Source of the DNA: Alphaproteobacteria bacterium
GTDB taxonomy: Bacteria > Pseudomonadota > Alphaproteobacteria > UBA9219
Length of the DNA stretch: 64,000 nt
NCBI GenBank assembly: GCA_013286365.1
Contig: JABDFY010000005.1
Location: 6,364-70,363 of the forward strand
Direction of reading: 5' to 3'
Every line of letters starts with the position of its first letter. Positions within the stretch are counted from its first letter, which is position 1. The notes under the pieces were generated by a model. It saw only the letters and a program-made list of their open reading frames with translations. It was not told the origin of the DNA and made no database searches. A program made the translations under genes and the position numbers. Of the stretch, positions 17,341-54,195 are shown one piece after another.

Positions 17341-17524
17341 ATATATTATATAATCCTAATAAATCCCCTGCAGAAAAAGACGATCAAATCTAAGATAAAC
17401 AAACCAAACGACTAAAGAAGGTTGCTATGGGTCTTAATTTTTTCATCTTTTTTTTCCATCATTATGCCATGCTTTGACGGATATATTGGGGGCCGTATGG
17501 CGGGAGAGATCGGGGAGAAAATTC

Positions 17525-25585: not shown

Positions 25586-26068
25586 CTAGTCGGCAATGCC
25601 GTCGGTAAATAGAAACAGCCGTCTTTCGGGCGGGATATGCAGAAAACCGAAGGGTGTGTAGAAACGGATCAAATCATCCGTCAGCGGATCAACGACGAGA
25701 ACGTGAATGCCGATTTCTTTTTCCAGAACCTGCACACGCCGGATGGCATTGGCGAGCAGCAGTTTCCCCAAACCTTGCTTCGCCCATCCTTTATCGACCG
25801 CAAGCTTGCCGAGAAGCGCAGCCGGTATCGGGTATTTGGGTAAATGCTTGGTATGGCTTGGCGGCAGTTTTTCGGCTTCGACCGTGGTTGCAGCCAGAGT
25901 GTAATAACCGATAACCTGGCTCTTGCCTTCTTCGATGGCGACGAACACGCGATTTAAGCGCCGCTTAATGTCCTGCGTCGCACGTTCGCGCAGATAGCGG
26001 TTAAGAGCATCTTCGCCGCAATCGAAATCTTTTCGATCCTGCGCTTTCAAAGGCTCAATAATGAACAT
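25586..26068 (-). CDS. GNAT-family acetyltransferase toxin (TacT/KacT-like)
   Basis: 160 aa GNAT fold (VFVAIEEGKSQVIGYYTLAA; QGLGKLLL acetyl-CoA motif); immediately downstream of a DUF1778 gene. Confidence 0.65.
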   Translation of the reverse strand: MFIIEPLKAQDRKDFDCGEDALNRYLRERATQDIKRRLNRVFVAIEEGKSQVIGYYTLAATTVEAEKLPPSHTKHLPKYPIPAALLGKLAVDKGWAKQGLGKLLLANAIRRVQVLEKEIGIHVLVVDPLTDDLIRFYTPFGFLHIPPERRLFLFTDGIAD

Positions 26069-26077
26069 GGAAACTCG

Positions 26078-26404
26078 TTAACGGGAAACAACTTCCTGAT
26101 CGTGCCTTTTGAGAAGGGCTTTCAGATTGGCATTGGCTTTTGGCGGCTTGTTGAGCGCATCAAAAAACACATTCCAGACAGGTTCGGCAAGAACAACTTT
26201 CTCATGCGCGACAATATCCGCCTCCGCCGCTTGCAGGGCGCGGGTCACGACATAATCGGATACGGATTCATGGCTATACGATGCCGCCCGTTCCAGCTTT
26301 GCCTTGGACGGCGGATCGATACGCATGCTCAACCGCTCAACCTTTAAACGGCTGCTTTTCGCATGAACTGTTTTCTTTCGCGCGGTCTGTCTCAGTGTCG
26401 ACAT
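26078..26404 (-). CDS. DUF1778-family antitoxin (TacA-like, RHH)
   Basis: 108 aa; MRIDPPSKAKLERAASYSHESVSDYVVTRALQAAEADI...WNVFFDALNKPPKANANLKALL matches the DUF1778 pattern (RIDIRVSPE.K.LIERAA...S.F...A...A...F...L..PP.PN..L). Confidence 0.65.
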   Translation of the reverse strand: MSTLRQTARKKTVHAKSSRLKVERLSMRIDPPSKAKLERAASYSHESVSDYVVTRALQAAEADIVAHEKVVLAEPVWNVFFDALNKPPKANANLKALLKRHDQEVVSR

Positions 26405-32439: not shown

Positions 32440-32499
32440 TTATTAGACAAACAATATTTCATGCAGACCATTCACAGCATTTTTGAAAGGAGAATAGGC

Positions 32500-33510
32500 A
32501 TGTCCGATACGATCATTTCATTGGAATCTGCACTCGATCAATTTCGGGACGCTATCGCCGCTAAGGGCATTACGCCGCCTATCGCCATTGAACCCGACGG
32601 CAAACTCCACCGCTTTTCCAGCAACGGCAAGCCAGACGATGACGCAGGATGGTATGTCTTTCATGAGGGCAATATCCCTGCCGGTTCTTTTGGTGATTTC
32701 CGTACCGGGCAGACGGTTTCATCATGGATGGCCGATATAGGCCGCCCCTTGTTGCCACTTGAGAAGAAAGATTTTAGAAAAAAACAGGAAGAAATGCGGG
32801 TCAAGCGGGAAGCTGACATAGCCATACGCCGCGCAGAAGCAAAACAAAAAGCATCGAACATCTTGCGCCTCTCTGAAGCTGCGCATGACGATCATCCTTA
32901 TCTCTTACGCAAAGAGGTCAGAGCCCACGGCTTGCGTAACTGGAAAGGGCTACTGATTATCCCTATGATTGATGAATCCTGTGAGGTTCAGTCGCTTCAG
33001 TTTATTGCAGGCGACGCCGGCAAGAGGTTTTTGTCGGGCGGCAAGATGCAGGGTTGCTATTTTCCGCTAGGCGACCTCAATGAAGCAGAAATTATTCTAA
33101 TTGCCGAAGGTTATGCAACCGCTGCAACCCTCTATGAAGTAACCGGCCAACCAACCATTGTCGCTTACAATGCCGGAAACCTTTTGCCAGTTGCCAGGTC
33201 AATCCGCGCTCAGCATCCGGCAGCGTCGATCATCATTTGTGCTGACGATGATAATAAGACCAAAGGCAATCCCGGCTTAACCAAGGCCCATGAAGCGGCA
33301 CGCGCTATCAATGGAACACTCATCGCTCCTGATTTTGGTGACAACCGGCCTGATGGTTTAACGGATTTCAACGATATGGCGGTTCATTTAGGCAAAGAAG
33401 CTGTTGCCTGTCATTTCATCAATCGCCCGGTCGAAAGAAAAATTGACACAACTTATTCCACAGCAACTACACCGCAAACCAAACGTCTAACAGTCAGGCT
33501 GGATGCGTAG
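32500..33510 (+). CDS. Toprim-domain DNA primase (phage/plasmid type)
   Basis: N-terminal DGKLHRFSSNGKPDDDAGWYVFHEGNIPAGSFGDFRTGQ (primase recognition region typical of phage/plasmid primases); Toprim motifs IILIAEGYATAATL and IIICADDDNKTKGNPG; RBS AGGAGAATAGG before ATG 32500. Confidence 0.65.
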   Translation: MSDTIISLESALDQFRDAIAAKGITPPIAIEPDGKLHRFSSNGKPDDDAGWYVFHEGNIPAGSFGDFRTGQTVSSWMADIGRPLLPLEKKDFRKKQEEMRVKREADIAIRRAEAKQKASNILRLSEAAHDDHPYLLRKEVRAHGLRNWKGLLIIPMIDESCEVQSLQFIAGDAGKRFLSGGKMQGCYFPLGDLNEAEIILIAEGYATAATLYEVTGQPTIVAYNAGNLLPVARSIRAQHPAASIIICADDDNKTKGNPGLTKAHEAARAINGTLIAPDFGDNRPDGLTDFNDMAVHLGKEAVACHFINRPVERKIDTTYSTATTPQTKRLTVRLDA

Positions 33511-34295: not shown

Positions 34296-34314
34296 TCCGC
34301 TTTTTGTAGATAAA

Positions 34315-35096
34315 TCACATTTTTGCAGGCAGGCACTCCGCGGAAAGATCGCCATAGACGAATTTTACTAACCTCTGCACTTGGTCAATTTCAACGCTGT
34401 CGCCTTTAATACGAATACCTGTTTTCTGCCTTAATATGTTCAGCGCACGGGAGAAAGTAGCGCTTTTCATGCCAAGAAGGTCGGCAACTAGACCTTTATC
34501 ATAGGGCAAAGGAAAAACAGCAGACCCCGTTTTGTCTTCGGGGGGGGGGCGCAAAGACTTAAGAGAAAGCACCCGATCCGTTGAGGGGCGCTCTGCATGG
34601 CATTTAGAGCCATCGCTCCATAGTGACGCCTATGATGCCGGGACATGGACGTGAGCATATTGAATGCAAATTTCGGGCTAAGGCTTATTCGTTCCTTTAA
34701 CACCTTCAAAGGAATGCTGAGCAGCTGCACAGCACTCACGACTTGAGCGCTGCTGGTATAGCAGTCATGATCAAAAATAGCGCTCTCACCAACAATATGG
34801 CCGCTCGTCAGCATATCAACAATGACTTCTTCGCCTTCCGGCATTGTATGAAATAACTTTATCCATCCGCTGCAAATCACGTAAAAGTTTTCTGCCGGTT
34901 CTCCCTGAAGATATAAAATCTTACCTTTTTTATAAGAACGGGGCTGCGCAGCATTATGAAAGCAGGTTATCTCTTCGTCAGAAAGACTGGCAAATAGCAG
35001 CGCACTTTTAAGCGAACCTAGAGAATACTCCGGCTGCATGGCAACCTGCTTTCCAGCGTCATTTGTCTTTGCGCTCATTTGCAGGAAGCATACCAC
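34315..35096 (-). pseudogene. Crp/Fnr-family transcriptional regulator split by a frameshift in a G10/C10 homopolymer (candidate phase-variable or sequencing artefact)
   Basis: 34488-35096 encodes the cNMP-binding domain (GKILYLQGEPAENFYVICSGWIKLF...GESAIF); 34315-34572 in another frame encodes the HTH_Crp domain (PYDKGLVADLLGMKSATFSRALNILRQ). Frames meet at poly-G 34540-34549; 11 or 8 residues would restore one ORF of about 245 aa. Confidence 0.6.
34540..34549. repeat. homopolymeric G10 (C10 on coding strand) tract inside Crp/Fnr gene
   Basis: Read directly: cttc-gggggggggg-cgc. Confidence 0.9.
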
Positions 35097-35907
35097 GTCT
35101 AGTACGAGAAGCCTTATAATATACAGCGAAAATTCAAACTATTTGATGTGTGTCAATTCAAGGGCTTGGGATTGGAATAGCTATGATTTTGCCGGAGAAT
35201 CTCTGCCGACTCAGCCAATGGGCTATCCTATGAAAACCAACTGTAAACCTGACCACACCGAGAAGCCTTTCCATAATTCCGTTATCAGTTTCCAAGGATA
35301 CGTATCGCGACGGGTAGGTAATATGCGTTCAGTAATCCTTGATGATCAGGATATAAGCCTGGATAAAATCTTCGGTGTGCCCAAAGCGGCCAAAGATTCG
35401 GCTGATAAAGCCATCGGCGAAACTGGTCTAAACGTGCGTTCGGAATCTGACAAATATCTATAAGGTCAAACTTATAAATACCAAGACCGAGAATTGCACA
35501 TGCTATCCGGATCGACCTCTAACAGCCTGTGAAGTTATCACAAGAGAGAATTAATACCCCCTAGTCTTGGCTGACTAGCAATCGAAAATGGCGTCGATAG
35601 CTACGCCCCAAAACCCATCCAGAGAAATAAATTAATAGGAGGTATGCATGCCCAGCGCCAAAGCTGCGTCCAGAAAATGTTCATGCCGGAAGAAAACTTC
35701 ATGGCTCAAATCTTGGCTCGATGCGTTCGGTATTTATCGAGTATTAGAAAAAATCCATATATCATGGAAAATCCGTAAAGGTCGAGTTAAGAAAAACCGC
35801 CGCCAAAACGGCAGCAAGGCATGCGCATGTCGGACATGCGCACCTTGCAAGGGACTTCGTCCCGTTGACCCAACGCCTTCGGCGCAAGCACACCTTAAGG
35901 TACAATC

Positions 35908-36264
35908 ATGACCAACAACCATCTCACGCGCATATCGTTCCGCGTCAAACCGGACGAACGCAAAAGCATTATTGCCGATGCGAAGCAGGCAGGCATGACG
36001 ACGGGTTCATACGCCCGTTACCGTCTGCTCGAAGTGCCGCAGACAAGGGCCATCTATCGGCGCAGCGAGCTTAAGCGGCTGTTCAAGCATCTCATCGGGC
36101 AGATAGGACGCGTGAGTAACAACATGAACCAGATCGCCTGGAAAATGAACTGCAATATGGTGCTAGCTCCGCTTGACCTTGAACTTCACAGGGAAGGCAT
36201 TACGGCGCTCAAGGAGATGCGCGCGGTTCTTGTGGGCCATCTATTGCAAAATGGCCCATGCTGA
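35908..36264 (+). CDS. mobC: mobilisation accessory protein MobC family
   Basis: 118 aa; LIGQIGRVSNNMNQIAWKMN matches the MobC motif (L...G.IGNNLNQIAR..N); RHH-like N-terminus; immediately upstream of and overlapping relaxase gene. Confidence 0.65.
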   Translation: MTNNHLTRISFRVKPDERKSIIADAKQAGMTTGSYARYRLLEVPQTRAIYRRSELKRLFKHLIGQIGRVSNNMNQIAWKMNCNMVLAPLDLELHREGITALKEMRAVLVGHLLQNGPC

Positions 36265-37400
36265 TCTTTGGTGCTTCCTGCAGCGACTGGAAGGAAAAGG
36301 CCGACTACGCAGAAGATAAAGCCGATAATGAATATGCCAAGCTCCACGAGGTGCAGTGCGAAGGCATTGAGGACGTACAGATGGCCATGGCAGCCATGGC
36401 GGCATTTGCGGTGGGCACACAGTGCGAGAGGTTTCTGTATCATGCCACCATCAACCTCAATCCAGGTGAACGGCTTACGCCTGACCAATGGCGGAAGGCT
36501 ATCGAAACCCTTGAGAAGAATCTGAAGCTGACCGGCCATTACAGAGTCTTTTTCGAGCATATTAAGAAGAACAGGCAGCATTACCATATTTACTGGTCAC
36601 GGATACCACCAGATGGTGGCCCCGCTGTACACATGGGCAACAATTATTATGTCCACCAACGAACAGCCAAAGCTCTTGAACTTGCATTTGGCCTAAAACT
36701 AGCACCACGCGGCGACAAGACAAAACCATCCAAAAAGAAACAGGAGATCAATAACCGTAACAGCCGCCTAAGAGTAAACCCTGAAATCGTCACTAAAGAA
36801 GTGACGAAGCTGTTCAAGGACAGCAAGACAGCCAAAGAGTTCATAGCCAGTCTTAAAATGACTGGCTACATCCTGACACGCGGTAAGAATGGCAGTTATG
36901 TCATCGTCGATAGGCAGGGTGGTTATCACGGCCTTTTGCGCCGCATTAAGGGCGCGAAGCTGGATGATCTAAGGCAAAAATTTCCCGACCTTGAAAAGAC
37001 AGCTTTGCCTTACTTGAGTGATGTCCTTAAAAGCCGGAGTCCCGTGTCAATTCACAATTTCAAACGTGCGGCAGGATCGTTCAAAAGGCCAAGACGAATA
37101 TATAATATGTCGCGCCTGCCGAAAATCAGGCCTCTATTTTACCGGCCACGGCATCTTACGGCTCTTATTCTTCAAGCTATAAGCCGCCATCCGAAGCCAC
37201 AGCGCAAATCCTTTCCTGCTATGTTTGTACGACGGAGAGGAAAGAGAAAACGGAACAAAAACAGCTCGGATTGGAAAACACCATTCCGTCGCCCTGAATG
37301 GGATACAGCGGAGTTGCTTGCCTGGGCATGGGAGAATGGCCGTGCTGATGTGTTAGCGGATTTTGGCATCCATATGCCGCTAGAAACTTTTGAACCTTAG
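36258..37400 (+). CDS. mobA: MOBQ-type relaxase (MobA/RepB' family nuclease domain)
   Basis: N-terminal EKADYAEDKADNEYAK resembles RSF1010 MobA AKADYIQREGKYAR around the catalytic Tyr; 3-His motif QHYHIYWSRI (HxHxxxSRI); basic C-terminal tail. Confidence 0.65.
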   Translation: MLIFGASCSDWKEKADYAEDKADNEYAKLHEVQCEGIEDVQMAMAAMAAFAVGTQCERFLYHATINLNPGERLTPDQWRKAIETLEKNLKLTGHYRVFFEHIKKNRQHYHIYWSRIPPDGGPAVHMGNNYYVHQRTAKALELAFGLKLAPRGDKTKPSKKKQEINNRNSRLRVNPEIVTKEVTKLFKDSKTAKEFIASLKMTGYILTRGKNGSYVIVDRQGGYHGLLRRIKGAKLDDLRQKFPDLEKTALPYLSDVLKSRSPVSIHNFKRAAGSFKRPRRIYNMSRLPKIRPLFYRPRHLTALILQAISRHPKPQRKSFPAMFVRRRGKRKRNKNSSDWKTPFRRPEWDTAELLAWAWENGRADVLADFGIHMPLETFEP

Positions 37401-37495: not shown

Positions 37496-38326
37496 ATGAG
37501 TTCATATTATGAACGGATAAAGGAAGCGGCCCAATCCAGCTGGGAAAACGCCACGGCTCTTCTCTGGTGGTTATTTGCCAGATCACCAAAACCCGTAAGT
37601 GCTGTTGGCGCTATAAATGAAGCGGCACTGCCACGCGTAACAAAATCGACATCTTTCTTGCGCTGGCTCTTGACCAAATCACCGAGACTGTTGCGACGCG
37701 GTGTCCAGGGGGTTGTGATTTATGCCCTATCTTATGTAGCGAAAGATACTTTGGACATAGCGCATGAAGAATATCCTGATAATGGGTTTGTGGCTAAGGC
37801 TGACACGGTAGCTAATGCCGCCGTGAAAGCTGAAAATTTTCTGCTTACTGGCGCGACTTCGATAGCGAAAGATATTTACGACTCGATACCAGCACAAGCA
37901 GCGCCATCAAAAGCATCAATACCAACGGCAGCTCTACCATCGGAGCTAACTAAGGCTATCGATGAAAGCTACAAGACGGCAACAGAAAACCCAAATGCCG
38001 CAATAACCATTCCACAGGTGAGCGCGGAACAATTGTTGCCGCCACCTGGAATGCCGATATCACTAACACCGCCTATTATCAATCAACCTATCCGTGAAGC
38101 GGCGTTCATGCCAATTAAGTCAGGACAGCGAAACCGTTCCAATCTCAATGCTGCACTTATGCCACCTATCTCGCCAGAACCAGTCATTCCTGCACTTGCA
38201 CCTGACGGTCTTCCCATCGATGGCGGCTATGATCCTGTAACAGAGATTACTTGGGGGCCGTATGGCAGGCCCATAGAAAAACGCATAATCAGCAATAGAG
38301 CGGCTTTACCATTGGCGGATCGTTAA
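37496..38326 (+). CDS. hypothetical protein with Pro-rich C-terminal half
   Basis: 276 aa ORF downstream of relaxase; no recognisable domain. Confidence 0.3.
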   Translation: MSSYYERIKEAAQSSWENATALLWWLFARSPKPVSAVGAINEAALPRVTKSTSFLRWLLTKSPRLLRRGVQGVVIYALSYVAKDTLDIAHEEYPDNGFVAKADTVANAAVKAENFLLTGATSIAKDIYDSIPAQAAPSKASIPTAALPSELTKAIDESYKTATENPNAAITIPQVSAEQLLPPPGMPISLTPPIINQPIREAAFMPIKSGQRNRSNLNAALMPPISPEPVIPALAPDGLPIDGGYDPVTEITWGPYGRPIEKRIISNRAALPLADR

Positions 38327-39602: not shown

Positions 39603-39887
39603 TCACTTCTTTCGTTTGGCAGTTGGTTTTTGTTTATCAACAGGCAAAAGCGTTACGCCAACAGCTTTCAGCTCGTCTGTGGAAACAGATTTCAGCTCGA
39701 TGAAGTCTACTCCGTGACCGGCAAAGGCTTGTACGAGCTTTTCGATGCTTTTGGCGTGCGGCTTTTTAAAATAGCTGCATTCGATATTTTTTATAGTTTC
39801 AGGAGAAATATTGGCGACCTCGGCAAGCTCAAGCCTTGTCCAGTCTAGGAGTGCCCTTGCCGCTCTAAGTTGTTCGCTCGTTATCAT
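39603..39887 (-). CDS. XRE-family helix-turn-helix protein (short member of local paralog family)
   Basis: MITSEQLRAARALLDWTRLELAEVANISPETIKNIE is an HTH_3-like pattern; N-terminus shared with 51308-51967 and 52662-53357 products and with a remnant at 42686-42802. Confidence 0.55.
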   Translation of the reverse strand: MITSEQLRAARALLDWTRLELAEVANISPETIKNIECSYFKKPHAKSIEKLVQAFAGHGVDFIELKSVSTDELKAVGVTLLPVDKQKPTAKRKK

Positions 39888-39970
39888 GGCTGCAAATCCA
39901 AGCTAAAATAGATTGCTGACGGCTAAGTTCGTCCAGGAGCAGTTCTGTTAAGAAAAGCCCAGGCACTTTC
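39884..39970. repeat. 87-bp direct repeat copy A (3' end of HExxH paralog + intergenic + next start codon context)
   Basis: tcatggctgcaaatccaagctaAaataGattgcTgacggctaagttcgtccaggagcagttctgTtaagaaaagcccaggcactttc; 5 mismatches (uppercase) versus copy B at 41284-41370. Confidence 0.85.
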
Positions 39971-41287
39971 TCCGCAGCGTCTTCGGGCAATTTCAGGCGT
40001 TGCTGGCCCTGCAACAGCCGGAGAGGTTCTTGCAGATTTATCAGCGAATTTCATAGAAGCCCCGTCTGAAGCCGAATATAAAGTAGGCTGTGAAGACTTT
40101 AATAAAGAGGGACAAAAATATGCAGCCGCATCTTTTATAAGCTTTGCGTGATGGCGTACAAGTTCTGTGGTTAGACTGGAGTCTTCGATAATATCGCACA
40201 ATATTGGAAGAGCGATCGCCGGATTATCTCCCTGGGCTTTTCCTACCTCTCTATCAAGTTCGTCAAATAATGGTTTAAGAGAGGTTGGCGGAACATATAG
40301 TCTAGCAAACGTCTTATTTAAGATAGCCGTTTGTAATGCAACTGAGTCTTGTTCAATGGGAATTCCTAATAAACGTCCCTTAACACGCATGCGGATTTCA
40401 GTGTTAGTTAGGTAGTAACTTATGCTGCGCCTTTTTTCTCGTGATGAAAGACCTTGTAAATCAGGAATAAAGTTTATAAGTGGTAAGAAGGGACCAGATT
40501 GCATAACCGGATCAAAACATATTAAGTGTCCTGCTGACGGTTTTATAAAGCCGCTCAAATATCGTGATTTATGCAATACCGGAATTGCATCTCTAATATT
40601 GGCCGCTAGAGCCGGATTGGACTTTTCTACAAATGCTGCTTGAGATTCTATACACTCGTCCGCAAATGATTCTGCGTCATGTTCATATTGTCTGACAATG
40701 CTAGTGTTTACCTCATGTGATAGGCCTCGTCCTTGTAAGGAATGCCCCAGTTCATGAAAAAAAATGTAATGAGTTAGGATACCTTTCGGATATCTTTCTA
40801 AAAAATTCGTTGAACTGAACCCTAGACGATATGCCCATTGGTCAGATTCTGGCATTTGCTCATCAAATATAAAGAGGCATGATAGATATGGAAACATAGT
40901 TCCATTGAGTCTTCGAGGAAAAGGGCCTGGCAAAATTTTCTGGGCCGGTCGTCGAACAATTATATGTAAGTTTGGCCCTGGTTCGTTAAATGCCTCATTC
41001 TGCCAATACCCATTCCATGCTTTTGGTTCTTCTTTTAAAAATGCAGATGATATGTCTGGAAATAGACGCTCAATGGTTGCCCTGACAAACTTTCTTTGTA
41101 CATCCACTTCACTCCCTAAGACATCTACCAAATTTATAACTGCAATTTGTTGTTCCCATGCTTCACTCAATAATAATGAGAAGCTATCATTTGAAAATTC
41201 GTGTCTACGAAACACAAGATCTCTCGCATAATTACGCCACTGTCCAATAAGTGAAGGATCTTGTTTAAGTAGTACAACGTTATTCAT
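39923..41287 (-). CDS. HExxH-motif putative zinc metallopeptidase, paralog 1 (conserved C-terminal tail ...SAWAFLNRTAPGRT)
   Basis: 454 aa; FFHELGHSLQ HExxH motif; shares blocks AVINLxDV, PDxxW, E.xIRxR, YFCPSL and the terminal 15 aa with the two upstream paralogs; no N-terminal signal peptide. Confidence 0.5.
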   Translation of the reverse strand: MNNVVLLKQDPSLIGQWRNYARDLVFRRHEFSNDSFSLLLSEAWEQQIAVINLVDVLGSEVDVQRKFVRATIERLFPDISSAFLKEEPKAWNGYWQNEAFNEPGPNLHIIVRRPAQKILPGPFPRRLNGTMFPYLSCLFIFDEQMPESDQWAYRLGFSSTNFLERYPKGILTHYIFFHELGHSLQGRGLSHEVNTSIVRQYEHDAESFADECIESQAAFVEKSNPALAANIRDAIPVLHKSRYLSGFIKPSAGHLICFDPVMQSGPFLPLINFIPDLQGLSSREKRRSISYYLTNTEIRMRVKGRLLGIPIEQDSVALQTAILNKTFARLYVPPTSLKPLFDELDREVGKAQGDNPAIALPILCDIIEDSSLTTELVRHHAKLIKDAAAYFCPSLLKSSQPTLYSASDGASMKFADKSARTSPAVAGPATPEIARRRCGESAWAFLNRTAPGRT

Positions 41288-41370
41288 GGCTGCAAATCCA
41301 AGCTATAATAAATTGCCGACGGCTAAGTTCGTCCAGGAGCAGTTCTGCTAAGAAAAGCCCAGGCACTTTC
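41284..41370. repeat. 87-bp direct repeat copy B
   Basis: Near-identical to 39884-39970; a degenerate third copy lies around 42838-42900. Confidence 0.85.
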
Positions 41371-42600
41371 CCCTGGTTGTCTTGCTCCACTGGAAGCTGG
41401 TGCCGGTCTAGTCGCAATAGGAACGCGATCAAGCTTCGGAACATGTGCGAACAAGGATGGACAGAAATAAGAGGACGCATCAAGTAATATATCCGCATGA
41501 TGCCTTGTAAAGGGACAAGTAATTTCGCCAGAACCTATTAGTCCTGGAATTTCTGGTAGCAATTGAGTTCCTGCAGCATTGCTTGCGATCCTATTCCAAG
41601 TTTCTAAACAGGAAGATAATTCTGCTGTAAGGGTGCCTCCATCTACATGCCACGTTTTAAGAATTTGCTGAAGATTTGAGGAATTTAATTTTATTTGTTT
41701 TTTGTCATGGATAGCTGAAATGCGAACACGAATCTCCATTTCGGTAATCCAGCTAGCTAAAGCAAGCTTGCGTTCGAATGTTAAGTGCTTCATTTCGTCA
41801 ACAACTGGCGGGAATTGACCAGTTAAATTGCCGTAGTCAAAAATGGAGTGGTATTCTGGGTCATATCTCAAGAATCCCCTAAGTGTTCTAGCCCATTTAA
41901 AGGCTGTACAGACTTCTCGAATTGCCTTGGCTTCGAGTGGATTTACTGCATCAAGAATAAGCGCTTGATTACCCGCCTGTTCCAACGCAAATTGATCGGC
42001 ATCGCGTTCTGCAATCCAACGTCCTTGGGGGCCATACTGTTCTTGTTGTAATTGAATAAAATGTCCCAATTCATGGAGAAACATTAAATCTTTAACAGCT
42101 TTGCTCTTAGGAAAATTTTCAAGATTATTTCCCAAATCGGTAAAATATTTCCATTCCTGAGCTGGTGTCCAACGCCTATCAGGAGCAAGGAGCAAGCCCA
42201 TAATTATTAGTCGATCTCCCGACAGTCTCGGAGGAAAAACGCTATTTCGAAATAATTGGGGTTGAAGACTATGTGCTAAAACAATAGCTCCTGGGCCCAA
42301 AGGTTTGCGTTGCAGATTATTCCAATAATGGTGCCAGCCAGATTTAAGAGGTGCTACCTCTCGAGGAAACATCTGCTCATAAGATCGTCTTAAATAGCTT
42401 GTGTTTGCAGCAAACTGTTCATCAGACGGTAATTGTATATGTTCTGGGTTGGCTGAAGAGAATGGTACATCAGCTAAGTTTATTACAGCTATTCTCTGCC
42501 CCGTACTCTGAAAGAGTAAACGTGAGAAATCAGCAGCTGAAGCATCATTCCACCGAAAGAGTAATGATGTGGCCTCTCGTTGAGCTAGTATTTGGTTCAT
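41323..42600 (-). CDS. HExxH-motif putative zinc metallopeptidase, paralog 2 (C-terminal tail ...ESAWAFLSRTAPGRT)
   Basis: 425 aa; MFLHELGHFIQ; same conserved blocks as paralogs 1 and 3. Confidence 0.5.
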   Translation of the reverse strand: MNQILAQREATSLLFRWNDASAADFSRLLFQSTGQRIAVINLADVPFSSANPEHIQLPSDEQFAANTSYLRRSYEQMFPREVAPLKSGWHHYWNNLQRKPLGPGAIVLAHSLQPQLFRNSVFPPRLSGDRLIIMGLLLAPDRRWTPAQEWKYFTDLGNNLENFPKSKAVKDLMFLHELGHFIQLQQEQYGPQGRWIAERDADQFALEQAGNQALILDAVNPLEAKAIREVCTAFKWARTLRGFLRYDPEYHSIFDYGNLTGQFPPVVDEMKHLTFERKLALASWITEMEIRVRISAIHDKKQIKLNSSNLQQILKTWHVDGGTLTAELSSCLETWNRIASNAAGTQLLPEIPGLIGSGEITCPFTRHHADILLDASSYFCPSLFAHVPKLDRVPIATRPAPASSGARQPGESAWAFLSRTAPGRT

Positions 42601-42685
42601 GTTGTTCTTATTATCATCCTAATACTAGGCTGTAAATTTGGATATATGTTGGCCAATAGCTGTCTCATTCGGATTATTTTTCAAA

Positions 42686-42802
42686 TTAACCAAGAAATTT
42701 AACCAAATGAAGGGTGAAAGGTAACAAGAGTATATCTTGATTGTCAGGAGTTAGACCGTAACTTCCTACCCTTGCTGCTCTTAGTTGATCGCTTGTTATC
42801 AT
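42686..42802 (-). pseudogene. remnant of XRE-HTH gene start (MITSDQLRAAR...), degenerate
   Basis: Minus-strand ATG at 42800-42802 gives MITSDQLRAARVGSYGLTPDNQ..., matching MITSEQLRAARALLDW of 39603-39887 but decaying after 11 aa; the ORF-track ORF 42686-42958 is a chimera. Confidence 0.35.
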
Positions 42803-42839
42803 AATTACAAAAATCCAATATCTAAATAAATGTGAATGG

Positions 42840-44402
42840 CTAAGTTCTTCCCGGGGATGTTCGTCTAATAAAAGCCCACGCAGTTTCTTCGGGCAGCTTA
42901 TGTGGATTCTTATCAGCTTCTGGCCTCGCGGCTTCGGATGTCGGCGGGATAGCAGCATTTCCTACTGAAATACTTGCAGGCAAAGCTCTTCGGGCCAAAA
43001 GCTCTTTTGCCGTCGATTGAGCAACCTGCGCCGCCGCCGGAGATTTCGCTGCTGAATGGGCAGCTGCTGCAAGAAGTGCATTTATAAGTTGGTCTGCAGG
43101 AGATACGGGATTTGGGGCTAGATTTGTATGCGAAGATCGAACTATTCCCATATTTCGACCGTATGTAGAAAAGGGCACCATATCCAGTTGTGCATCAAGA
43201 GATCTGGGACAAAAATAGCCCGCTGCCCTGGCGACCAGGTTCGCACCTTCTTCAGTGATAGGGCAGGATATCCTTTGTTGCGATAGCAGTGCTTTTAATG
43301 CTGGCAATTTTTGTTGTGGCTTTACCAGCAAAGCCCACTGCGGCGACATCGCTGCATCAAAAAGCGCTCTGAGGTTTGGGGGAATTTTATCTTGTCTAAT
43401 GTTAGTCCATTGCTCACTTAGCCATAAACATCCGCATGACTTCATGTCCTCAGAATTTTGAATTATTTGAATATTAGCCAATAAAGCAATGCTGCGTGCG
43501 CGTAGTTCCAGATTAACAAGCCAATTTGTCATCGCTGATCTCTGTACACCGGACATCCGCGAATAGAGTTGGGTTAGGCCGCTAGGCACAAAGGATGATA
43601 TCAAATTATCGTCGTGGAAAATGACTGTGTCATGAAGCTGAGCGTCATGAAATCCAGAAAGGGTCCGCGCTTCTGGAACCTTTTGCAAAGTTTCATCCAC
43701 TAGCTTGGATTGATCAGGAGATATTGAGCTTATTAATTCTCTGCAATGACTAAGTGTTTCAGGGGCAAAAAAGTTAGCATCAATCTCTCCCAGCCAAGCC
43801 CTGGCATCACTTGCCATGGTCCTAGCCGTATGCGGTTCAGCAGTTTGAAGCGTTTCCGCCAGCTCATGGAAAAATGTGTGGTGTTTTATGCCGTTGCCTT
43901 TTGGGCAGTTTTCCAAAGTGTCAGGCGTCAAACCTGTTATATGACACCATAACTGTTCCCCAGACCAACGCCGGTCTGGAGTTAAAATCACAGAAAAAGT
44001 TGGGGCAAATTTTCCGGGCAACCTGTGCGCAAAGGACGTTTGCGGCACTTGTGCAAGAGGCTTATGGCCCATTCTAATATTCATCGGTTGTGGATTGAGG
44101 GCAGTCCTTGTCCACGTATCTTCCCATTCGGGTATGACTTTTGTTTCAACAGGGAAAATGCCTTCTGCGGCCTGTTTTACCCATGCGGCACGATGGGCAA
44201 ACTCTTCATGGGTATAAAATCTTCTGGTCCATGCCGGAGTACTATGCGGCAACTCCTGCAAATTAATAACCACTGTAGGGCGGCCTATGATTTTTGTTAC
44301 CAACCGCGAGAAATCAACATGCGGCATTGTTTCCCAGTTTAGCAACCCAGTGATTAATCGTTCTTTTCCGCTAAACTTGCGATTTTCTTCCTGCATTTGC
44401 AC
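42840..44402 (-). CDS. HExxH-like paralog 3 with degenerate motif (HELAE) and long Ala-rich insert; C-terminal tail ...ETAWAFIRRTSPGRT
   Basis: 520 aa; TFFHELAETLQ (second His replaced by Glu), possibly catalytically inactive; conserved blocks ILTPDRRW, YFCPRSL, terminal tail. Confidence 0.5.
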   Translation of the reverse strand: MQMQEENRKFSGKERLITGLLNWETMPHVDFSRLVTKIIGRPTVVINLQELPHSTPAWTRRFYTHEEFAHRAAWVKQAAEGIFPVETKVIPEWEDTWTRTALNPQPMNIRMGHKPLAQVPQTSFAHRLPGKFAPTFSVILTPDRRWSGEQLWCHITGLTPDTLENCPKGNGIKHHTFFHELAETLQTAEPHTARTMASDARAWLGEIDANFFAPETLSHCRELISSISPDQSKLVDETLQKVPEARTLSGFHDAQLHDTVIFHDDNLISSFVPSGLTQLYSRMSGVQRSAMTNWLVNLELRARSIALLANIQIIQNSEDMKSCGCLWLSEQWTNIRQDKIPPNLRALFDAAMSPQWALLVKPQQKLPALKALLSQQRISCPITEEGANLVARAAGYFCPRSLDAQLDMVPFSTYGRNMGIVRSSHTNLAPNPVSPADQLINALLAAAAHSAAKSPAAAQVAQSTAKELLARRALPASISVGNAAIPPTSEAARPEADKNPHKLPEETAWAFIRRTSPGRT

Positions 44403-44492
44403 CCCTAAAATTTTGCCCTACACAAATTTCAAATAACATTATTAAAAAATTAGCGTTCCAAATTCGAAGTCGTTTAATCCGCCAATACAGCC

Positions 44493-47400
44493 TCAACCAG
44501 GCGTCAAGGCGTGATAAACAACCTCAGTGCCACTATGTCCGTCGGAACTTAAACCGAAACTTCCCGGATATGAACCAGGTACTATGATTGTATCCGTGCC
44601 AGCAGAACTGTTATGCAAAGTGATTGTTCCCGCTGTGTCCGCAGCATTCTCTTTAAAATTGAACGCTGTAGAGAATAGCGGAAAGTTTTTGATATCAATA
44701 AGGCTGCCGGGCTTGGCAAGATTTTCAATAATAAGGTTAGCTACGTCGGATGTAACCTGGAAGGTCGTTGAGCCAATGGTCGAGCCAATCAAGGTGTCGC
44801 CGCTACTACCGTTGAGTGTCGTTCCTGCGTTAGCAGCTATGAGTGTTTGCTTGGGAGCATCGATGAAGGTTTTAAATCCACGTATCTGATCAATATAGGT
44901 TTTTCCGGCTTCTACATAAGTGGCCGTTCCGGCAACCGTATTAACGGTCACTGCAGCGGCCACTTTATTGAAGCTCAAGGTTGGATTATTAACCCCAGAT
45001 GAGACCAACTTAACTGAGACTTCGTTGGGGGCGAGTGTCGTCTGTTCGGTTACCGCTTGAGCCACAGCAGCCGGTTTAGGAGGATCAACCATGTATGTGC
45101 CGCTAACCCCATCAGAAGAGAGAACATAGCTTCCTGCTGTAAAATTGCCATTTATATAGAACGATGTGCTTTGCCCTACGGTGTTTGAAAGACTGAACAA
45201 AGTTTGATTACCGGCGACAAGACTGGCCGTAACTGTGGCCGTTGTCGGAGCAAAGTTGGTTATGTCAATGACATCACTGGTGGGCGTATAATTGTTAATT
45301 GTAATGGGAGAGAGTGCGCTATTGAATTGAAAGGTCGTATTGCCACCTACGTAGCCGTACATCGTCGTTGAACTTGCATCTGCAATCAGTGTTTGCCCGG
45401 GGGCTGTGGCTGTAATTACGGCACCTGGGGATGTTGATACCAGCAAATCACTGCTGTAAGTCACACTGGGGTTGGGCAATTCGATATTATTACCCGTACC
45501 CATGATTGAAAGCTGCACCCCAGTGCCGCCGCCTGGATCACCATTCCGTCCAATCGTATTATTGTTGCCTATAATCGTGAGGTTGACGCCTGTTCCGACA
45601 AGAACCAAGTTGTTTGATCCAACCAAGATATTATTTGCGTCCCCTGCAACAAAATTGATGGTCGAGTTTGATAAATTGACGATGTTGCCCTTACCGGCCA
45701 CCATCGGATAGTCACCGTTGCCGCCAGTTATCAGATTGTTTGGGCCAACTACGGTTGAGCTAACATTGGCACCAAATGTTATGTAATTGCCGCCCCCGTT
45801 AATCCATGCATTCTTGCTTCCAGCATTATAGGCTATGGTGGCGTTCGATTCTGAGGTTGTGATGTTGGGGCCGCTTGCCACTATCGTTGTTCCGCCACCA
45901 CCACTGGGATCGCCGTTTACCCCTATGGTAAAGCCGGTGCCATAGGCCGCTAAGTTGACGCCCGGACCAGTGAGTATTAGGTCACTGCCGCCATAAACGG
46001 TATCGAAGGCACTACCTCGAACAAAATTAAGGGCGCAGTTTGATAAATCGACAGTCGTATAGCTGCCATCGATGAGGATATTTGCGCCAACACCGCCACC
46101 CGGATCGCCATTACTCCCTACAGTATTATAGTTGCCGACAAGCGAGGCCCCTATGCCGGTACCTACAAGGAACAAATCGTTATTGCCGTAGATCATTTGG
46201 TTAAGCGACCCAGCAGGGCAATTGATGGTGGAATAATCAAGCGTAGCTGTGTCACCGTTGCCCGCTAGCATCAGAATATCGCTGTTTCCTGTTATCGTAT
46301 TATGCGAGAGACCTGTGGCCCAAACGATCACGCTAGAGCCATAACCAATACTGATCTTGTCGTTAGCCCCGTTGATAGTCTCGTTGACGACGCCAGGGGC
46401 AATTTCAAAATCTACATTGGATACTGTTGCTGTGTTTTCACTATCTTTCAGCATTATTTCGAGAGGTGAGACGACCTCTCCCTGCACGAATTTGGCGTAC
46501 TCTGTCATCTGCGCTGAGGTAAACACAACTGTGGGTGTTCCTGGGTCGGTTAGACTAACCGCAAGGGAAACACCTTCAGCCGCAAGCTTCTGATCGGTTG
46601 GAATGCCGCTTATCATGTTTGCCAAAGATTCGCTGATGCTTAAGTTATGCGGACCCGTCATTGTGACTTGATCAAGCCCTATGGCCTGAGCTTGGGATAA
46701 TGCATTCATAAATGTCGAAAGAGCGTTAGGATCGCTTGACGTCGTCACGGCAGCGAGATAGCCCAAGGGATCAGCGACATATTGACTATAGATAGAAGCC
46801 GCATCGACGTTCGTTATTAGATTGGCAAGCGAACCATCAAGGCTTTGGTTGAAGGCATACATAACAATGGGGTTGCCCCCAATGATTGTAATGTTTTGCA
46901 ACCAGTTCATTACGGCTGCATCGATGCAATCTGTTGCATTTGTAAAACCGGCATCTTGGGGCGGGGCATAACCTGGCGCTATATCTCCAGGTGCAAAAAA
47001 TAATTTGTCTTTGAAAACGCCAAACGAATAGACCGATGAAGGCCCCCAGCCTATTACTGTTCCACCGGTAGACTTAATGATGTCGTTAAACATAGTCGTA
47101 AAGTCGTTACCCATGTTTATGGCGGTCTGTAGATCACTATTGGGACCACCTACATTGCCGCCGTTGTCAAAAGTTTCTTTAAATTCAATTGATACGTTTT
47201 CGGCGTTAATACCAACTTGGGCTACGGCGTTTGGCCCAACCGTTGGTACACTGCCGCCGCCAATGAAATTTTCGAAGGCATTAAGAGCATCACCAGCCAA
47301 GGTTCCTATGGCCTCGCCTACTGCTGAAGCAATTGGCCCCCAGTATGACCCTATTGCCGCACCCAGAGATCCTCCGACTTCCGCTGCTGTGTTATTGCTT

Positions 47401-49571
47401 GGAATAATTTCATTGATGACCATTGATACCGCTATATCCAGGCCTGCCGTCTCGAAGCTAGTGCCGAAGGTATCTCCAAACGTAGTAGCATCAGGCAAAG
47501 CGTTCGCCGATGAAACATTCGTGATCCCAAATTGCTCTAGCGTTGATTGGGCTAGCGCTGTGTCAGCCAGTTGGCTGGTTACTATATAGGCCGAGAGCTG
47601 TTGAGCCGTTGCCTGAAATGCAGCAGCACCAACGAGAGAGCCAAGCTGAGTTGGGATAAACCCCGTCAGTTTGGCAAGATCGGCACCGGCAATAGAGCCT
47701 AGAATGCCGCTCGCCATGTTACTGATCGAGGCTGCAACATCAGTCGCAAAATCTGGCGGGTTAGCCGTGGGCGTAATGGCCTGTTCGGCTGCATCAATGC
47801 CCGCTTTGATAAAAGCCTGGCTGACGACGGAGGCCGGAATGTTATGTGCGAAAGCGAAGTCAGAGACAATAATCCCTGCTACGGCATTAGCTATATATCC
47901 TCCCAATATTGTCGATTCAGCAGGATTGCCATCCAAGCTGGAGCCGAGGGAGGGCAATTGAAGACCGTCTGAATTGCTGAAATCAAGCTTGATCAGAAAG
48001 GCCCCTGTAATGGGGTCGTAATATGAAACTGAGGTGCCGTCTGCCGTGGTTGTGGTTTGCTGGGTTAAGATACCATTGTTGGTATTGACGACCTTTATGG
48101 AGTTGGTGCCATCGGCATTAGTATTATAGGTAGCATAAGAATTGCCTGAACTACTGACCTGTACACCGCCGACATTCTGGCCAGCAGCATTATTAATGGC
48201 GACGGTCGTACCATCCGATGAATTTGTGATATTGAAGGTTGAATTGGGGCTAGATGCATTAAGTGGAACGTTCACTAATCCTTGTCCTCCCGTGAGAACG
48301 AGCCACGCATTATTAGAAGTCGGATCAATCAGAATTTGTGGCGTCGATCCTGCCGTTGAGAAGTCCGATAAAGTGATATCCGGGCCGCTATTGCTAATAA
48401 CAGGTGATGCGCCATCAGGAATGACGAAATAATTACCGCCCGATAGAAATGTCATCTCAGAGCTGGCACTGGGTATAGACAAGACGCTGGTAGTGTCGGA
48501 CGTTGGATTGGTGAAAGCGGCAGAAACGCCGCCACCAGTCAACGGAGTGACGACAGGCTCATCATTTTTTCCGAAACCTACAACTTCCTTGTTGGCTGAT
48601 AATGTGCCGCCACTAGCATTAGTTTGCTCAATATAATTGGAGCTAGGATTTAGAAAATCTTGGACATTTAAAATTGCCGATGCCGCATTGCTGCCGTCAG
48701 CGGCAAGATCCAAACTTACGCCTGGCGCAAGATTATAAATGCTCGCACTACTTGGTTGCGCTAAGTAATCTTTGAAATCGATTTGTTGAGGGTTTGTCGG
48801 GCCCAAGAGAAACTGTTGTAAAGTAATACCTTCCTGTTGAATGTACTGATCAAGTTCTTGAAGGTTGTTTTGTGCGGCAGTGAGAGCTGTATGAAATGCT
48901 CCCGCCAACGAATCTTCCTGTAATCCAAGTACATGGGTATAAGTGATGCTAACGCTATCGGTAGCAAATGCGTCAGCTTGATTTTGTGTATAACCACGCA
49001 AAAGTAACGCGGAAAAATAGTCTTGAGTTGTTGAAAGTGCGATGAGGTGATAAGCATCGGCCAGCCCTTGTTCAGCAGGCGTAAGCTGGTCATAAAACGA
49101 GGTATCGGAAAAGCCAGTTGCAATGCCAGGAGCTGCGCCTGCCCAAGAGTACTGTGCAACCCCTAGTGCGGTGACACCTTTTTGTGCATCGACACTTTGA
49201 ATTTGTTGAAAATCTGGAATTACTCCGTTTCCGTTAATTATATCCGTAAAAAATGCTTTTGCTATACTATTGGATGAGTTCTGTTCTTGGGGGCCAAAGA
49301 GGTTGATTATTTCACCAAGTTGATCAAGGACAGCAGCTTGGTTAACGGCGCGAATAGCGACAGCATCAAATGTTGAAGCCCCCGAATTTACGTCATAAGC
49401 GATGCTTATCCAATTTAATATCTGCTGGTCAGCAGGGCTTGGGTTTGGGTTTTGTGTCTTCAAGTCTTGAAGCACCGCATTATATCCAACCGCATAATTA
49501 GGAAGATTAGGATTATTCCTGAGTTGATTAAGTAATAAGAGCGTATTTGCTGATATTTGCATATTAACCAC
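44493..49571 (-). CDS. giant (1692 aa) Gly/Asn/Thr/Ser-rich repeat protein, probable beta-helical surface/secreted protein without N-terminal signal peptide
   Basis: Tandem about 50-aa repeats (NFV.G....L.G.N.L.L.G.GVNL...G...T.G.NGDPGGG.G); no Sec signal (MVNMQISANTLLLLNQ...); start overlaps upstream 227-aa secreted-protein gene by 8 nt. Confidence 0.55.
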   Translation of the reverse strand: MVNMQISANTLLLLNQLRNNPNLPNYAVGYNAVLQDLKTQNPNPSPADQQILNWISIAYDVNSGASTFDAVAIRAVNQAAVLDQLGEIINLFGPQEQNSSNSIAKAFFTDIINGNGVIPDFQQIQSVDAQKGVTALGVAQYSWAGAAPGIATGFSDTSFYDQLTPAEQGLADAYHLIALSTTQDYFSALLLRGYTQNQADAFATDSVSITYTHVLGLQEDSLAGAFHTALTAAQNNLQELDQYIQQEGITLQQFLLGPTNPQQIDFKDYLAQPSSASIYNLAPGVSLDLAADGSNAASAILNVQDFLNPSSNYIEQTNASGGTLSANKEVVGFGKNDEPVVTPLTGGGVSAAFTNPTSDTTSVLSIPSASSEMTFLSGGNYFVIPDGASPVISNSGPDITLSDFSTAGSTPQILIDPTSNNAWLVLTGGQGLVNVPLNASSPNSTFNITNSSDGTTVAINNAAGQNVGGVQVSSSGNSYATYNTNADGTNSIKVVNTNNGILTQQTTTTADGTSVSYYDPITGAFLIKLDFSNSDGLQLPSLGSSLDGNPAESTILGGYIANAVAGIIVSDFAFAHNIPASVVSQAFIKAGIDAAEQAITPTANPPDFATDVAASISNMASGILGSIAGADLAKLTGFIPTQLGSLVGAAAFQATAQQLSAYIVTSQLADTALAQSTLEQFGITNVSSANALPDATTFGDTFGTSFETAGLDIAVSMVINEIIPSNNTAAEVGGSLGAAIGSYWGPIASAVGEAIGTLAGDALNAFENFIGGGSVPTVGPNAVAQVGINAENVSIEFKETFDNGGNVGGPNSDLQTAINMGNDFTTMFNDIIKSTGGTVIGWGPSSVYSFGVFKDKLFFAPGDIAPGYAPPQDAGFTNATDCIDAAVMNWLQNITIIGGNPIVMYAFNQSLDGSLANLITNVDAASIYSQYVADPLGYLAAVTTSSDPNALSTFMNALSQAQAIGLDQVTMTGPHNLSISESLANMISGIPTDQKLAAEGVSLAVSLTDPGTPTVVFTSAQMTEYAKFVQGEVVSPLEIMLKDSENTATVSNVDFEIAPGVVNETINGANDKISIGYGSSVIVWATGLSHNTITGNSDILMLAGNGDTATLDYSTINCPAGSLNQMIYGNNDLFLVGTGIGASLVGNYNTVGSNGDPGGGVGANILIDGSYTTVDLSNCALNFVRGSAFDTVYGGSDLILTGPGVNLAAYGTGFTIGVNGDPSGGGGTTIVASGPNITTSESNATIAYNAGSKNAWINGGGNYITFGANVSSTVVGPNNLITGGNGDYPMVAGKGNIVNLSNSTINFVAGDANNILVGSNNLVLVGTGVNLTIIGNNNTIGRNGDPGGGTGVQLSIMGTGNNIELPNPSVTYSSDLLVSTSPGAVITATAPGQTLIADASSTTMYGYVGGNTTFQFNSALSPITINNYTPTSDVIDITNFAPTTATVTASLVAGNQTLFSLSNTVGQSTSFYINGNFTAGSYVLSSDGVSGTYMVDPPKPAAVAQAVTEQTTLAPNEVSVKLVSSGVNNPTLSFNKVAAAVTVNTVAGTATYVEAGKTYIDQIRGFKTFIDAPKQTLIAANAGTTLNGSSGDTLIGSTIGSTTFQVTSDVANLIIENLAKPGSLIDIKNFPLFSTAFNFKENAADTAGTITLHNSSAGTDTIIVPGSYPGSFGLSSDGHSGTEVVYHALTPG

Positions 49572-50247
49572 CAGCTTTAATTGATTTTATGAATTGACTG
49601 ATGTTTGCCCGAATATCCTCCCAATGAGGCATTAGGGAGTCATTAAAATCGCACAGCAGAGTAACTCCTGGTGTTAAATCAAAATAAGTTTGACACCTTC
49701 TGGCTGCAGGATCTTTCTCCTTCGCGCATTCGACAGCGATGTTTTCCTTCGTAGTACCGTCAGCTATATAATAAATATCTTCGGCACCGCTAAGAGTGTA
49801 ATGTTTTGAAATAAACAGCCCATAACGTTTATCATGTTCGGAAATACCTTTTTCTGCTGCAATAACATTATCGGCGATATAAGACGCGTGCGAAAATAAT
49901 TTAGTGCTTTTTAGTTCTATAATGTTTGGTGAATGCCAGCGTTTGCGGTAGACAAACTCATCTATTGTCTTCTCGGTCGCTCCATTGAAGTCGGGGAAGT
50001 GTATTACTGCTTGAAAGAACACCGTACCGTCGGAACTATAGATTGCTGTTTCAAGATAATTTCTTGGAATATTAAGTACTGCACCATTGATGTGAATGGT
50101 AACTAAATGTGTTTCTACTGACGGGGTGTAAACAATGTATTTTTCTGAAACCGAGTCGGCTTCTGCATAGACTGGATGCGATCCCAGTAGGCAAACGCAC
50201 GATATGAGAAAAATAATCTTTGAAAGATAAAGTTTAGATAGTTTCAT
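49564..50247 (-). CDS. secreted hypothetical protein co-transcribed with the giant repeat protein
   Basis: Signal peptide MKLSKLYLSKIIFLISCVCLLGSHPVYA; 227 aa. Confidence 0.45.
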   Translation of the reverse strand: MKLSKLYLSKIIFLISCVCLLGSHPVYAEADSVSEKYIVYTPSVETHLVTIHINGAVLNIPRNYLETAIYSSDGTVFFQAVIHFPDFNGATEKTIDEFVYRKRWHSPNIIELKSTKLFSHASYIADNVIAAEKGISEHDKRYGLFISKHYTLSGAEDIYYIADGTTKENIAVECAKEKDPAARRCQTYFDLTPGVTLLCDFNDSLMPHWEDIRANISQFIKSIKAGG

Positions 50248-51967: not shown

Positions 51968-52148
51968 GGGTTTGTACGGCTAAATTGACATTGTTTAAAG
52001 CTTCAAGCGCCCGTTTTAAGCGAGTCTCTTCATCCATATGAGTGATGTAATCTTTTATCCTGGCGAGCTTTTCTATGGTCAGAAGCAGATCAAATGCCTG
52101 ATTGCTGCCAAAACGCCTGACGAGATCATTGTAAGTTAATTGATCCAT
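51921..52148 (-). CDS. small hypothetical protein
   Basis: 75 aa, helical; upstream of and overlapping the HTH regulator. Confidence 0.3.
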   Translation of the reverse strand: MDQLTYNDLVRRFGSNQAFDLLLTIEKLARIKDYITHMDEETRLKRALEALNNVNLAVQTLEEYISDVPSTLRTN

Positions 52149-52154
52149 GACGCT

Positions 52155-52331
52155 TTTTCTCAGGCCGCTGCGTATTGCTGTTGCAAGTTGTCTTGCATTA
52201 GAACGGCCCAGCGTTCCTCTAAAGGAATAGCCATGTTGTAACGAATACCCTCGCTGCGCTCAATTCGCTCGACGATGTCTTGAACCCAGCTTTCGCCATG
52301 GCGAGCTACAAATTTTTCAAATTCCAGCATG
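52155..52331 (-). CDS. small hypothetical protein (58 aa), below ORF-track cutoff
   Basis: Hand-translated: MLEFEKFVARHGESWVQDIVERIERSEGIRYNMAIPLEERWAVLMQDNLQQQYAAA; stop overlaps start of 51921-52148. Confidence 0.25.
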
Positions 52332-52538
52332 TGTGTGCTCCTAAATGCTCGTGCGACTGAATGTGCTTTCCGTTCGAAATATGCGCTAAACGCTTGATTC
52401 TCTTATTTTTAGCTCTCAAAAATGGGTAACTATCGATATTGTGAAGGGAATATAGCGACTAAAATTGTTGAAAGCAATGATAAAACATGCATTTTTACGA
52501 TCATAATTATTCAATCTATTAAATATGTATGGACAAAC

Positions 52539-52564: not shown

Positions 52565-52661
52565 TTGTTACCCATACTATGTTTAACAATGTATAAAATA
52601 AACATGACGTATGTATTCACTCGGAGTAATAACCCGTAAGAAAGCAAGTTAAGGAGTCGGT

Positions 52662-54179: not shown

Positions 54180-54195
54180 ATACTGCCAGAATTAA

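Follow-up and report, generated by a model that had tools for sequence, protein, structure and literature searches.

A Crp/Fnr-family regulator gene interrupted at a ten-base G tract: a candidate slipped-strand switch on a genomic island of an uncultured alphaproteobacterium

Homopolymeric switches and the interrupted regulator gene

It has been established that runs of 9-11 G:C pairs slip at high rates during replication and that such slippage underlies phase variation in bvgS and in the contingency loci of Campylobacter and Neisseria (PMC1891110, PMC8355987, PMC5084427, PMC2831843). In Bordetella pertussis, a C6/C7 tract in bvgS switches a regulator on and off in a reversible manner (PMC1891110). 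The locus described here, which lies in a window of 64,000 nucleotides (the whole stretch of DNA that was analysed), resembles bvgS in that a G:C homopolymer is found within a regulatory coding region, where in bvgS a one-base slip truncates the regulator and turns the regulon off (PMC1891110). However, for bvgS the switching and both alleles have been shown experimentally and linked to a phenotype, whereas here two OFF lengths only have been seen. Furthermore, the present gene codes for a one-component Crp/Fnr regulator, is carried on a mobile island and has a tract of 9-10 rather than 6-7 bases. With the contingency loci of Campylobacter, Neisseria and Helicobacter the locus has in common the poly-G/C type of tract, a length of at least 8 and, as proposed here, a slipped-strand ON/OFF mechanism (PMC8355987, PMC5084427). 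In those genomes, however, such tracts number in the tens; they belong mainly to genes for surface structures and are often shared between strains and placed near the 5' end. Here the 64 kb contain a single tract, which interrupts the gene of a cytoplasmic regulator after about 70% of its length and is found in no relative. By analogy, the type of switch would be one that is known already, working as the bvgS C-tract and the poly-G/C contingency loci do. Tract length and frame logic fit a phase-variable locus, but no ON allele was seen, and the locus is a candidate member of this class only. A full-text literature search, with incomplete coverage, did not find homopolymer switching of a Crp/Fnr-family regulator described, which is a weak indication that such switching would be new for the family.

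The tract is a run of ten G at positions 34540-34549 of the plus strand, equivalent to C10 on the coding minus strand, and it marks the frameshift site in a gene that is made up as follows.

34315..35078, minus strand: entire gene of the Crp/Fnr family, closest to FtrB/FixK-like regulators and interrupted by the frameshift; it runs from the ATG at 35078 to its natural stop at 34315-34317
34488..35078, minus strand: 5' reading frame, 196 aa from ATG 35078, with a premature stop at 34488-34490
34315..34539, minus strand: 3' part in the other frame, a winged helix-turn-helix (HTH_Crp_2) with the recognition helix ATFSRALNILRQ

The 5' frame consists of the cNMP-binding barrel, the long dimerisation helix, helix D and 18 out-of-frame codons, and the 3' part is predicted to be left untranslated in the G10 or G9 state. 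Around the tract the plus strand reads TTTTGTCTTC-GGGGGGGGGG-CGCAAAGACT, and two minus-strand open reading frames overlap here, one at 35096..34488 (202 aa from a GTG) that bears cNMP_binding and one at 34572..34315 (85 aa) that bears HTH_Crp_2. The original prediction that two overlapping frames switch at the G10 run is confirmed, since the frame of homology to intact 250-aa relatives changes precisely at the tract (...RIGCFLLSLC, then PEDKT...). Reconstruction of the reading frame bore out the further claim that a length of G11 or G8 restores one intact regulator, whereas with G9, G10 or G12 the frame is broken, G9 and G12 leading into the third frame with a stop after 16 codons. The size had been put at about 245 aa and is corrected here to 254 aa (G11) or 253 aa (G8) from ATG 35078. 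As in contingency loci, tract length thus toggles between an intact (8, 11) and a truncated (9, 10, 12) product. A recoded G11 equivalent of the tract, representing a locked-ON form, is CCACCGCCACC.

The run is the only one of at least 9 bases in the 64 kb window, in which the next longest G or C run has 6 bases. A composition model gives an expectation of 0.04 G/C runs of at least 10 per window, and a first-order model about 0.02 for G and about 0.02 for C, so that a G/C tract above the length of about 8 typical of contingency loci is located inside an open reading frame far above chance. Neither was a G/C run of 7 or more found in the relatives' loci (L002-L010, ~64 kb), nor did Tandem Repeats Finder report other simple repeats of note in the whole window.

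The regulator, its promoter and the proline insert

In the repaired protein, PF00027 (cNMP_binding) is matched at residues 47-129 with E = 1.5e-22 and PF13545 (HTH_Crp_2) with E = 5e-8. The N-terminal cNMP-binding beta-barrel that is expected of a Crp/Fnr protein is therefore present, both as PF00027 and as a barrel in an AlphaFold2 (AF2) model; the helix-turn-helix and the dimerisation helix are joined in one polypeptide only after repair to G11 or G8 and not in the G10 or G9 products. The repaired product has 720 homologs at E <= 1e-3. Among them are uninterrupted proteins of 250 aa, encoded in metagenomes and metagenome-assembled genomes (MAGs), that match it from end to end at 76-81% identity. 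Like the FtrB/FixK-type regulators of Alphaproteobacteria, it combines cNMP_binding with HTH_Crp_2, has FtrB (NF006901) as the nearest named NCBIfam model and is preceded by an FNR/FixK-type box. It differs from them in scoring 88.3 bits against the FtrB cut-off of 211, which is below the equivalog threshold, in a unique proline insert of 2-3 residues and in the lack of an FNR-type cysteine cluster. FtrB is followed by Fnr, CRP, FnrL and FixK in that order, all under their cut-offs, with a score of 63 bits for the Fnr model against a cut-off of 228. When the repaired protein was checked for an FNR-type N-terminal cluster (CX2CX5C), none was found, the only cysteines being at positions 39, 69, 106, 170, 176 and 249, and the protein does not qualify as FNR proper, the [4Fe-4S] oxygen sensor. 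Because the scores against the named models lie below the cut-offs and this cysteine cluster is lacking, the gene product is a generic FtrB/FixK-like Crp/Fnr regulator that falls outside every characterised equivalog. The nearest solved structure, 3fx3/3h3z, is a structural-genomics entry named just 'cyclic nucleotide-binding protein'. In an alignment of 70 sequences, a near-invariant HHRRHY motif (residues 148-153, in the long dimerisation helix) and a near-invariant Cys 176 before the tract stand out as marks of the subfamily, and these residues might be ligands of a metal or haem cofactor.

The start of the homologs aligns with ATG 35078. Because the homologs begin there and a conserved box is found at -78, the likely start is this ATG and not GTG 35096, and it follows that an intact product would have the 254 (G11) or 253 (G8) residues given above. 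Two elements are found upstream of the gene.

35143-35156, minus strand: FNR/FixK-type palindrome TTGACACACATCAA, 78 nt 5' of ATG 35078
35114-35123, minus strand: AT-rich -10-like stretch TATATTATAA, the -10 being assigned by eye only

In 6/6 close homolog loci, a box of the form TTGA(C/T)-N4-ATCAA is located at -77 to -80, whereas L002-L004 have it at different distances from the start, and the regulator subfamily keeps such an FNR/FixK-type box across unrelated genomic contexts (upstream regions of L005-L010). This conservation suggests autoregulation or a master control by FNR/FixK, as for ftrB. The promoter architecture, in which the -10-like stretch comes after an FNR/FixK-type site, is thus preserved. 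In blastn comparisons, DNA homology to the relatives' loci covers 34314-35182, that is the gene and its promoter, with unrelated flanks; the match of this extent comes from L007 and the remaining loci match within the gene alone. Gene and promoter hence form a discrete module inside otherwise unrelated mobile-element surroundings. The idea that targets of the regulator are located on the island found no support, as TTGA-N6-TCAA occurs 3 times against 1.9 expected, and the site at the gene's own promoter is the only conserved one.

All 69 aligned homologs (69/69) read LC-P(E/x)DK without extra residues, whereas the window reads LC-APP(P)-EDK. At the DNA level, the site is TGCCC(C/T)GAAGA(C/T) in 6/6 close homolog loci and TGC-G-C10-GAAGAC in the window, with C9 in a second assembly (Logan) described below. 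Compared with the close homologs, the net insert amounts to +8 nt for the window and +7 nt for the Logan assembly, while in-frame values would be +6 or +9. The poly-G:C tract is therefore specific to the lineage of the window. An AF2 model of the G11 product, based on the 70-sequence alignment (mean pLDDT 81.9, pTM 0.76), predicts a canonical Crp/Fnr protomer with a long dimerisation helix (135-161) and a coil at 175-186 between helix 164-174 and strand 187-190; the APPP residues are 177-180 and are thus placed in the coil. The alignment with 3fx3 has a 4-residue gap at the position of the insert. Judging from the model, an insert of 2-3 prolines should be structurally tolerated in this loop. 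In an alignment with E. coli CRP, the insert comes to lie at the start of the activating region 1 (AR1) loop.

With the tract repaired, no further stops or frameshifts are present in the gene. None of the 32 columns that are invariant in the 70-sequence alignment has been lost, and ten of these columns follow the tract (P192, Y193, K195, L202, G203, M204, T208, S210, R211 and G243). Substitution rates (dN/dS by the Nei-Gojobori method) and lineage changes polarised with outgroups were as follows.

Window gene against four close homologs: dN/dS 0.055-0.11 upstream and 0.14-0.19 downstream of the tract
Intact close homologs among themselves: dN/dS 0.043-0.060 upstream and 0.044-0.068 downstream of the tract
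Derived changes in the window lineage: 3 of 156 columns upstream and 3 of 75 columns downstream of the tract

These values indicate that purifying selection has acted on the helix-turn-helix part during practically its whole history, and they offer at most a weak hint of relaxed constraint downstream of the tract. As there are no other lesions and dN/dS is well below 1, the frameshift is very recent, reversible or not real. It had also been put forward that a plain pseudogene would show further inactivating lesions, and for this the outcome was negative, the invariant residues, the low dN/dS and the promoter box all having been kept.

Tract length in two assemblies and the meaning of the interruption

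Truncated products of the gene are present in public collections in two lengths. One of them, P0006, has 179 aa and is encoded on contig_50 (56.5 kb) of the Logan assembly of SRR8422039; it is 100% identical until the tract and has the C-terminal end APPRRQNGVCCFSFAL, which corresponds to the G9 reading. The other, P0121, is the G10 truncation of 183 aa with an internal Met start, for which both NCBI and JGI/IMG have an entry on a contig of 75,079 bp. At 90% identity these two form a cluster with no third member. Both are stored as stand-alone cNMP_binding proteins, and the public 'cNMP-binding protein' of 179 or 183 aa is in fact the 5' part of the frameshifted regulator. Of contig_50, 20,540 bp align with window positions 24499-45039 with 0 mismatches and one gap, at the tract, and a second Logan contig of 8,152 bp is 100% identical to 52066-60217, so that G10 in NCBI/JGI and G9 in Logan are the sole difference across the 28.7 kb compared. 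Within this range an A8 at 40757 and a T8 at 26621 are the same in both assemblies. The two assemblies represent the same organism and were very probably built on the same Illumina-type reads, and the disagreement could reflect library, polymerase, amplification or sequencing stutter instead of cell-to-cell variation. Assemblies are hence untrustworthy for the length of the tract at 34540-34549. We also considered whether other frameshifted genes point to a generally error-prone assembly; this was rejected, as the overlap of open reading frames at 7025-8636 represents two separate ABC transporter genes and a mere TTG-start extension.

An ON allele (G8 or G11) is absent from a collection of 5.8 billion protein clusters, in which the best full-length match is 81% identical, and the lengths G9 and G10 that do occur are both OFF. 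A scan for further copies with the flanks GTTTTGTCTTC-N{4,20}-CGCAAAGACTTAAG returned 0 matches in genome contigs and 0 in metagenome contigs, and megablast against plasmids found no other copies of the locus. The comparison of tract length that had been suggested along with the original prediction therefore gave a divided answer: the lengths do differ, with G9 in Logan and G10 in NCBI/JGI, but neither an in-frame length nor a homolog with the tract was found. Much the same applies to the choice between phase variation and sequencing error as first framed, since length is unstable as a switch predicts, but stutter would give the same result and no ON allele was found.

We consider it an evenly balanced matter whether the tract is real and hypermutable and works, by slipped-strand mispairing, as an ON/OFF switch that is at present OFF and of unproven adaptive value, and it is this reading that we put forward. 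According to it, an uncultured alphaproteobacterium carries a Crp/Fnr gene, together with its own FNR-box promoter, on a mobilisable genomic island. In the protein, the tract stands for a few prolines (A-P-P or A-P-P-P) in the surface loop between helix D and the strand that opens the winged-helix DNA-binding domain. Runs of 9-11 G:C pairs slip at replication, so that the length drifts by one base per step; a length of 8 or 11 would give the full sensor and DNA-binding protein (ON), and with a length of 9, 10 or 12 translation would stop shortly past the tract and leave a sensor and dimerisation fragment without the helix-turn-helix (OFF). For a hypermutable G:C run of this length, ON/OFF switching follows mechanistically, provided that the tract is real. 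That the tract is exceptional, that the gene is otherwise intact, that the promoter box is kept at -78 and that the length is unstable in the data all speak for a switch. The data show the tract, its frame logic, the otherwise intact gene, the place in the loop and the difference in length between the assemblies; it is an inference that this difference may be real heterogeneity among cells, that ON cells may exist and that switching may be adaptive.

A stronger version of this proposal, in which the island carries an evolved contingency switch that sets an FNR-box-driven regulator stochastically ON or OFF and creates 'phasevarion'-like differences in regulon among subpopulations of an uncultured environmental alphaproteobacterium, seems distinctly unlikely to us. 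As part of this version, the OFF fragment might also act as a dominant-negative partner or as a ligand sink, and the PP and PPP forms that the ON lengths encode could differ in activation strength, the proline run being aligned with the start of the AR1 loop of CRP. Against a switch, and an evolved one in particular, are the missing ON allele, the 0/69 homologs with the tract, its position some 70% into the gene and the lack of other simple-sequence tracts in the window; as the tract is absent from all relatives, there is no sign of selection for switching, and the higher dN downstream of the tract would also fit an early relaxation of constraint.

Two more ordinary explanations have to be set against a switch. 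The gene may be a plain recent pseudogene, an accessory copy borne on the island in which a C run expanded and was then frameshifted at this hot spot, with reversion being irrelevant. We regard this as a minority possibility, though one to be taken seriously: both observed lengths are OFF and the databases hold no ON allele, the tract is unique to the lineage of the window, the gene is island cargo with homology to relatives confined to gene and promoter, and dN is modestly raised downstream of the tract. However, there is no second lesion, the invariant residues and the promoter box are intact, downstream dN/dS is still 0.14-0.19 and a G10 tract physically reverts at high rates. With no second lesion and constraint kept, inactivation would have to be very recent. 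The difference between a switch and a pseudogene is one of selection and not of mechanism. Unlikely in our view is a sequencing or assembly artefact, in which the true length is G11 (or G8), the regulator is an ordinary intact one and stutter has shortened the G run in both assemblies. Next-generation sequencing has difficulty in sizing homopolymers of some 10 bases, and the usual bias is contraction. Two assemblies with two lengths make the consensus at the tract demonstrably unreliable, and all else about the gene appears functional. The locus thus resembles the homopolymer artefacts of draft assemblies in a one-base ambiguity at a long G run that is called differently in two assemblies. Such artefacts, however, usually consist of one wrong call and one in-frame call, whereas at this locus both calls are out of frame and the assemblies are otherwise identical over the 28.7 kb, A8 and T8 included. 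Both assemblers would have to be wrong without either of them reporting an in-frame length, and an error in the majority consensus at a 10-mer requires most reads to be wrong. The difficulty of sizing homopolymers has been documented in a study in which A/T tracts alone were tested (PMC11878640). Were the frameshift an artefact or a fresh pseudogene, the feature would be ordinary.

It is also conceivable, but highly improbable, that full-length protein is made from G10 by recoding, through a -1 ribosomal frameshift on C_CCC_CCC or through RNA polymerase slippage that adds one C; in the G9 state, a +1 slip of tRNA-Pro on CCC-C would yield the G8 product. The frame arithmetic works, tandem tRNA-Pro can re-pair perfectly on C_CCC_CCC to give the same product as G11, tRNA-Pro is prone to +1 slips on CCC-C, and a fold that starts 9 nt downstream of the tract is slightly better than shuffled sequences (z = -2.1). 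However, this fold signal is weak, G9 and G10 require opposite shifts, and bacterial transcriptional slippage is known mainly on A/T runs. A slippery site or a second frame is found in 0/69 homologs, which argues that nothing is conserved or programmed; all 69 (69/69) are read in a single frame and a long C run is present in 0/6 close loci. We therefore rated programmed frameshifting as very unlikely, the tract being in no homolog, and recoding would at most make the OFF states leaky. A hairpin flanking the tract was considered as a functional element and was rejected, since it is a product of codon choice and is missing from L005.

Should the slipped-strand switch be real, it would exemplify homopolymer phase variation in a setting other than the usual host-adapted pathogens, and it would act on a one-component, global-type regulator on a mobile element, with bet-hedging across a whole regulon.

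The genomic island around the regulator

The window is chromosomal and carries PurL (274-2490), PanD, a ZnuABC system, LeuB (54196-55335) and HsdR. The best matches of PurL, at 80% identity, are from MAGs of an uncultured 'Alphaproteobacteria bacterium' and 'Bdellovibrionales bacterium'. The regulator gene is flanked by the following genes.

32461-33510: Toprim primase, on one side of the regulator together with a 203-aa open reading frame
35908-36264: NikA, on the other side of the regulator
36258-37400: MobA/VirD2 relaxase, beside NikA

A GNAT toxin with a TacA-like antitoxin and DUF6362 are also found near the regulator, with ArdC farther away. It had been stated at the outset that the gene is located inside a mobile-element-like block, and this holds, given the primase, NikA, the relaxase, the toxin-antitoxin genes and ArdC nearby, though no integrase was found. 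The relaxase is at most 35% identical to plasmid relaxases, and a relaxase-based scan of metagenome contigs for related mobile elements gave no relative. An Rfam scan of the window returned no RNA families.

Several other features of the region were observed. At 25586-26404, a GNAT-family toxin of 160 aa adjoins a TacA1-like antitoxin, so that the island seems to carry a toxin-antitoxin pair of the TacAT type. Two copies of a 19-nt direct repeat, TTGGGGGCCGTATGGCGGG, with 18/19 identical positions, are found at 17486-17504 and 38251-38269 and are separated by 20.8 kb; this could be the remnant of an att-like site or due to chance, an integrase being absent nearby. At 39884-44402, on the minus strand, there are three consecutive paralogous genes (454, 425 and 520 aa) that have a 90-nt direct repeat in common at their 5' ends (94% and 63% identity), and these are followed by a 1692-aa open reading frame (44493-49571) and a 227-aa one, the module running to 50247. 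The 454-, 425-, 520-, 1692- and 227-aa products gave no match in Pfam or PADLOC, and 39884-50247 is an uncharacterised cargo module of the island. Breaks in the Logan assembly are located at ~51.7-52.1 kb and at 60.2 kb. Finally, in the segment 52662-62993, the neighbours of leuB (54196-55335) are HTH regulators, a methyltransferase, ArdC (55502-56752), a RecB/Cas4-like nuclease (56829-58256), a phosphoesterase and a type I HsdR. The mobile or defence region may extend beyond leuB.
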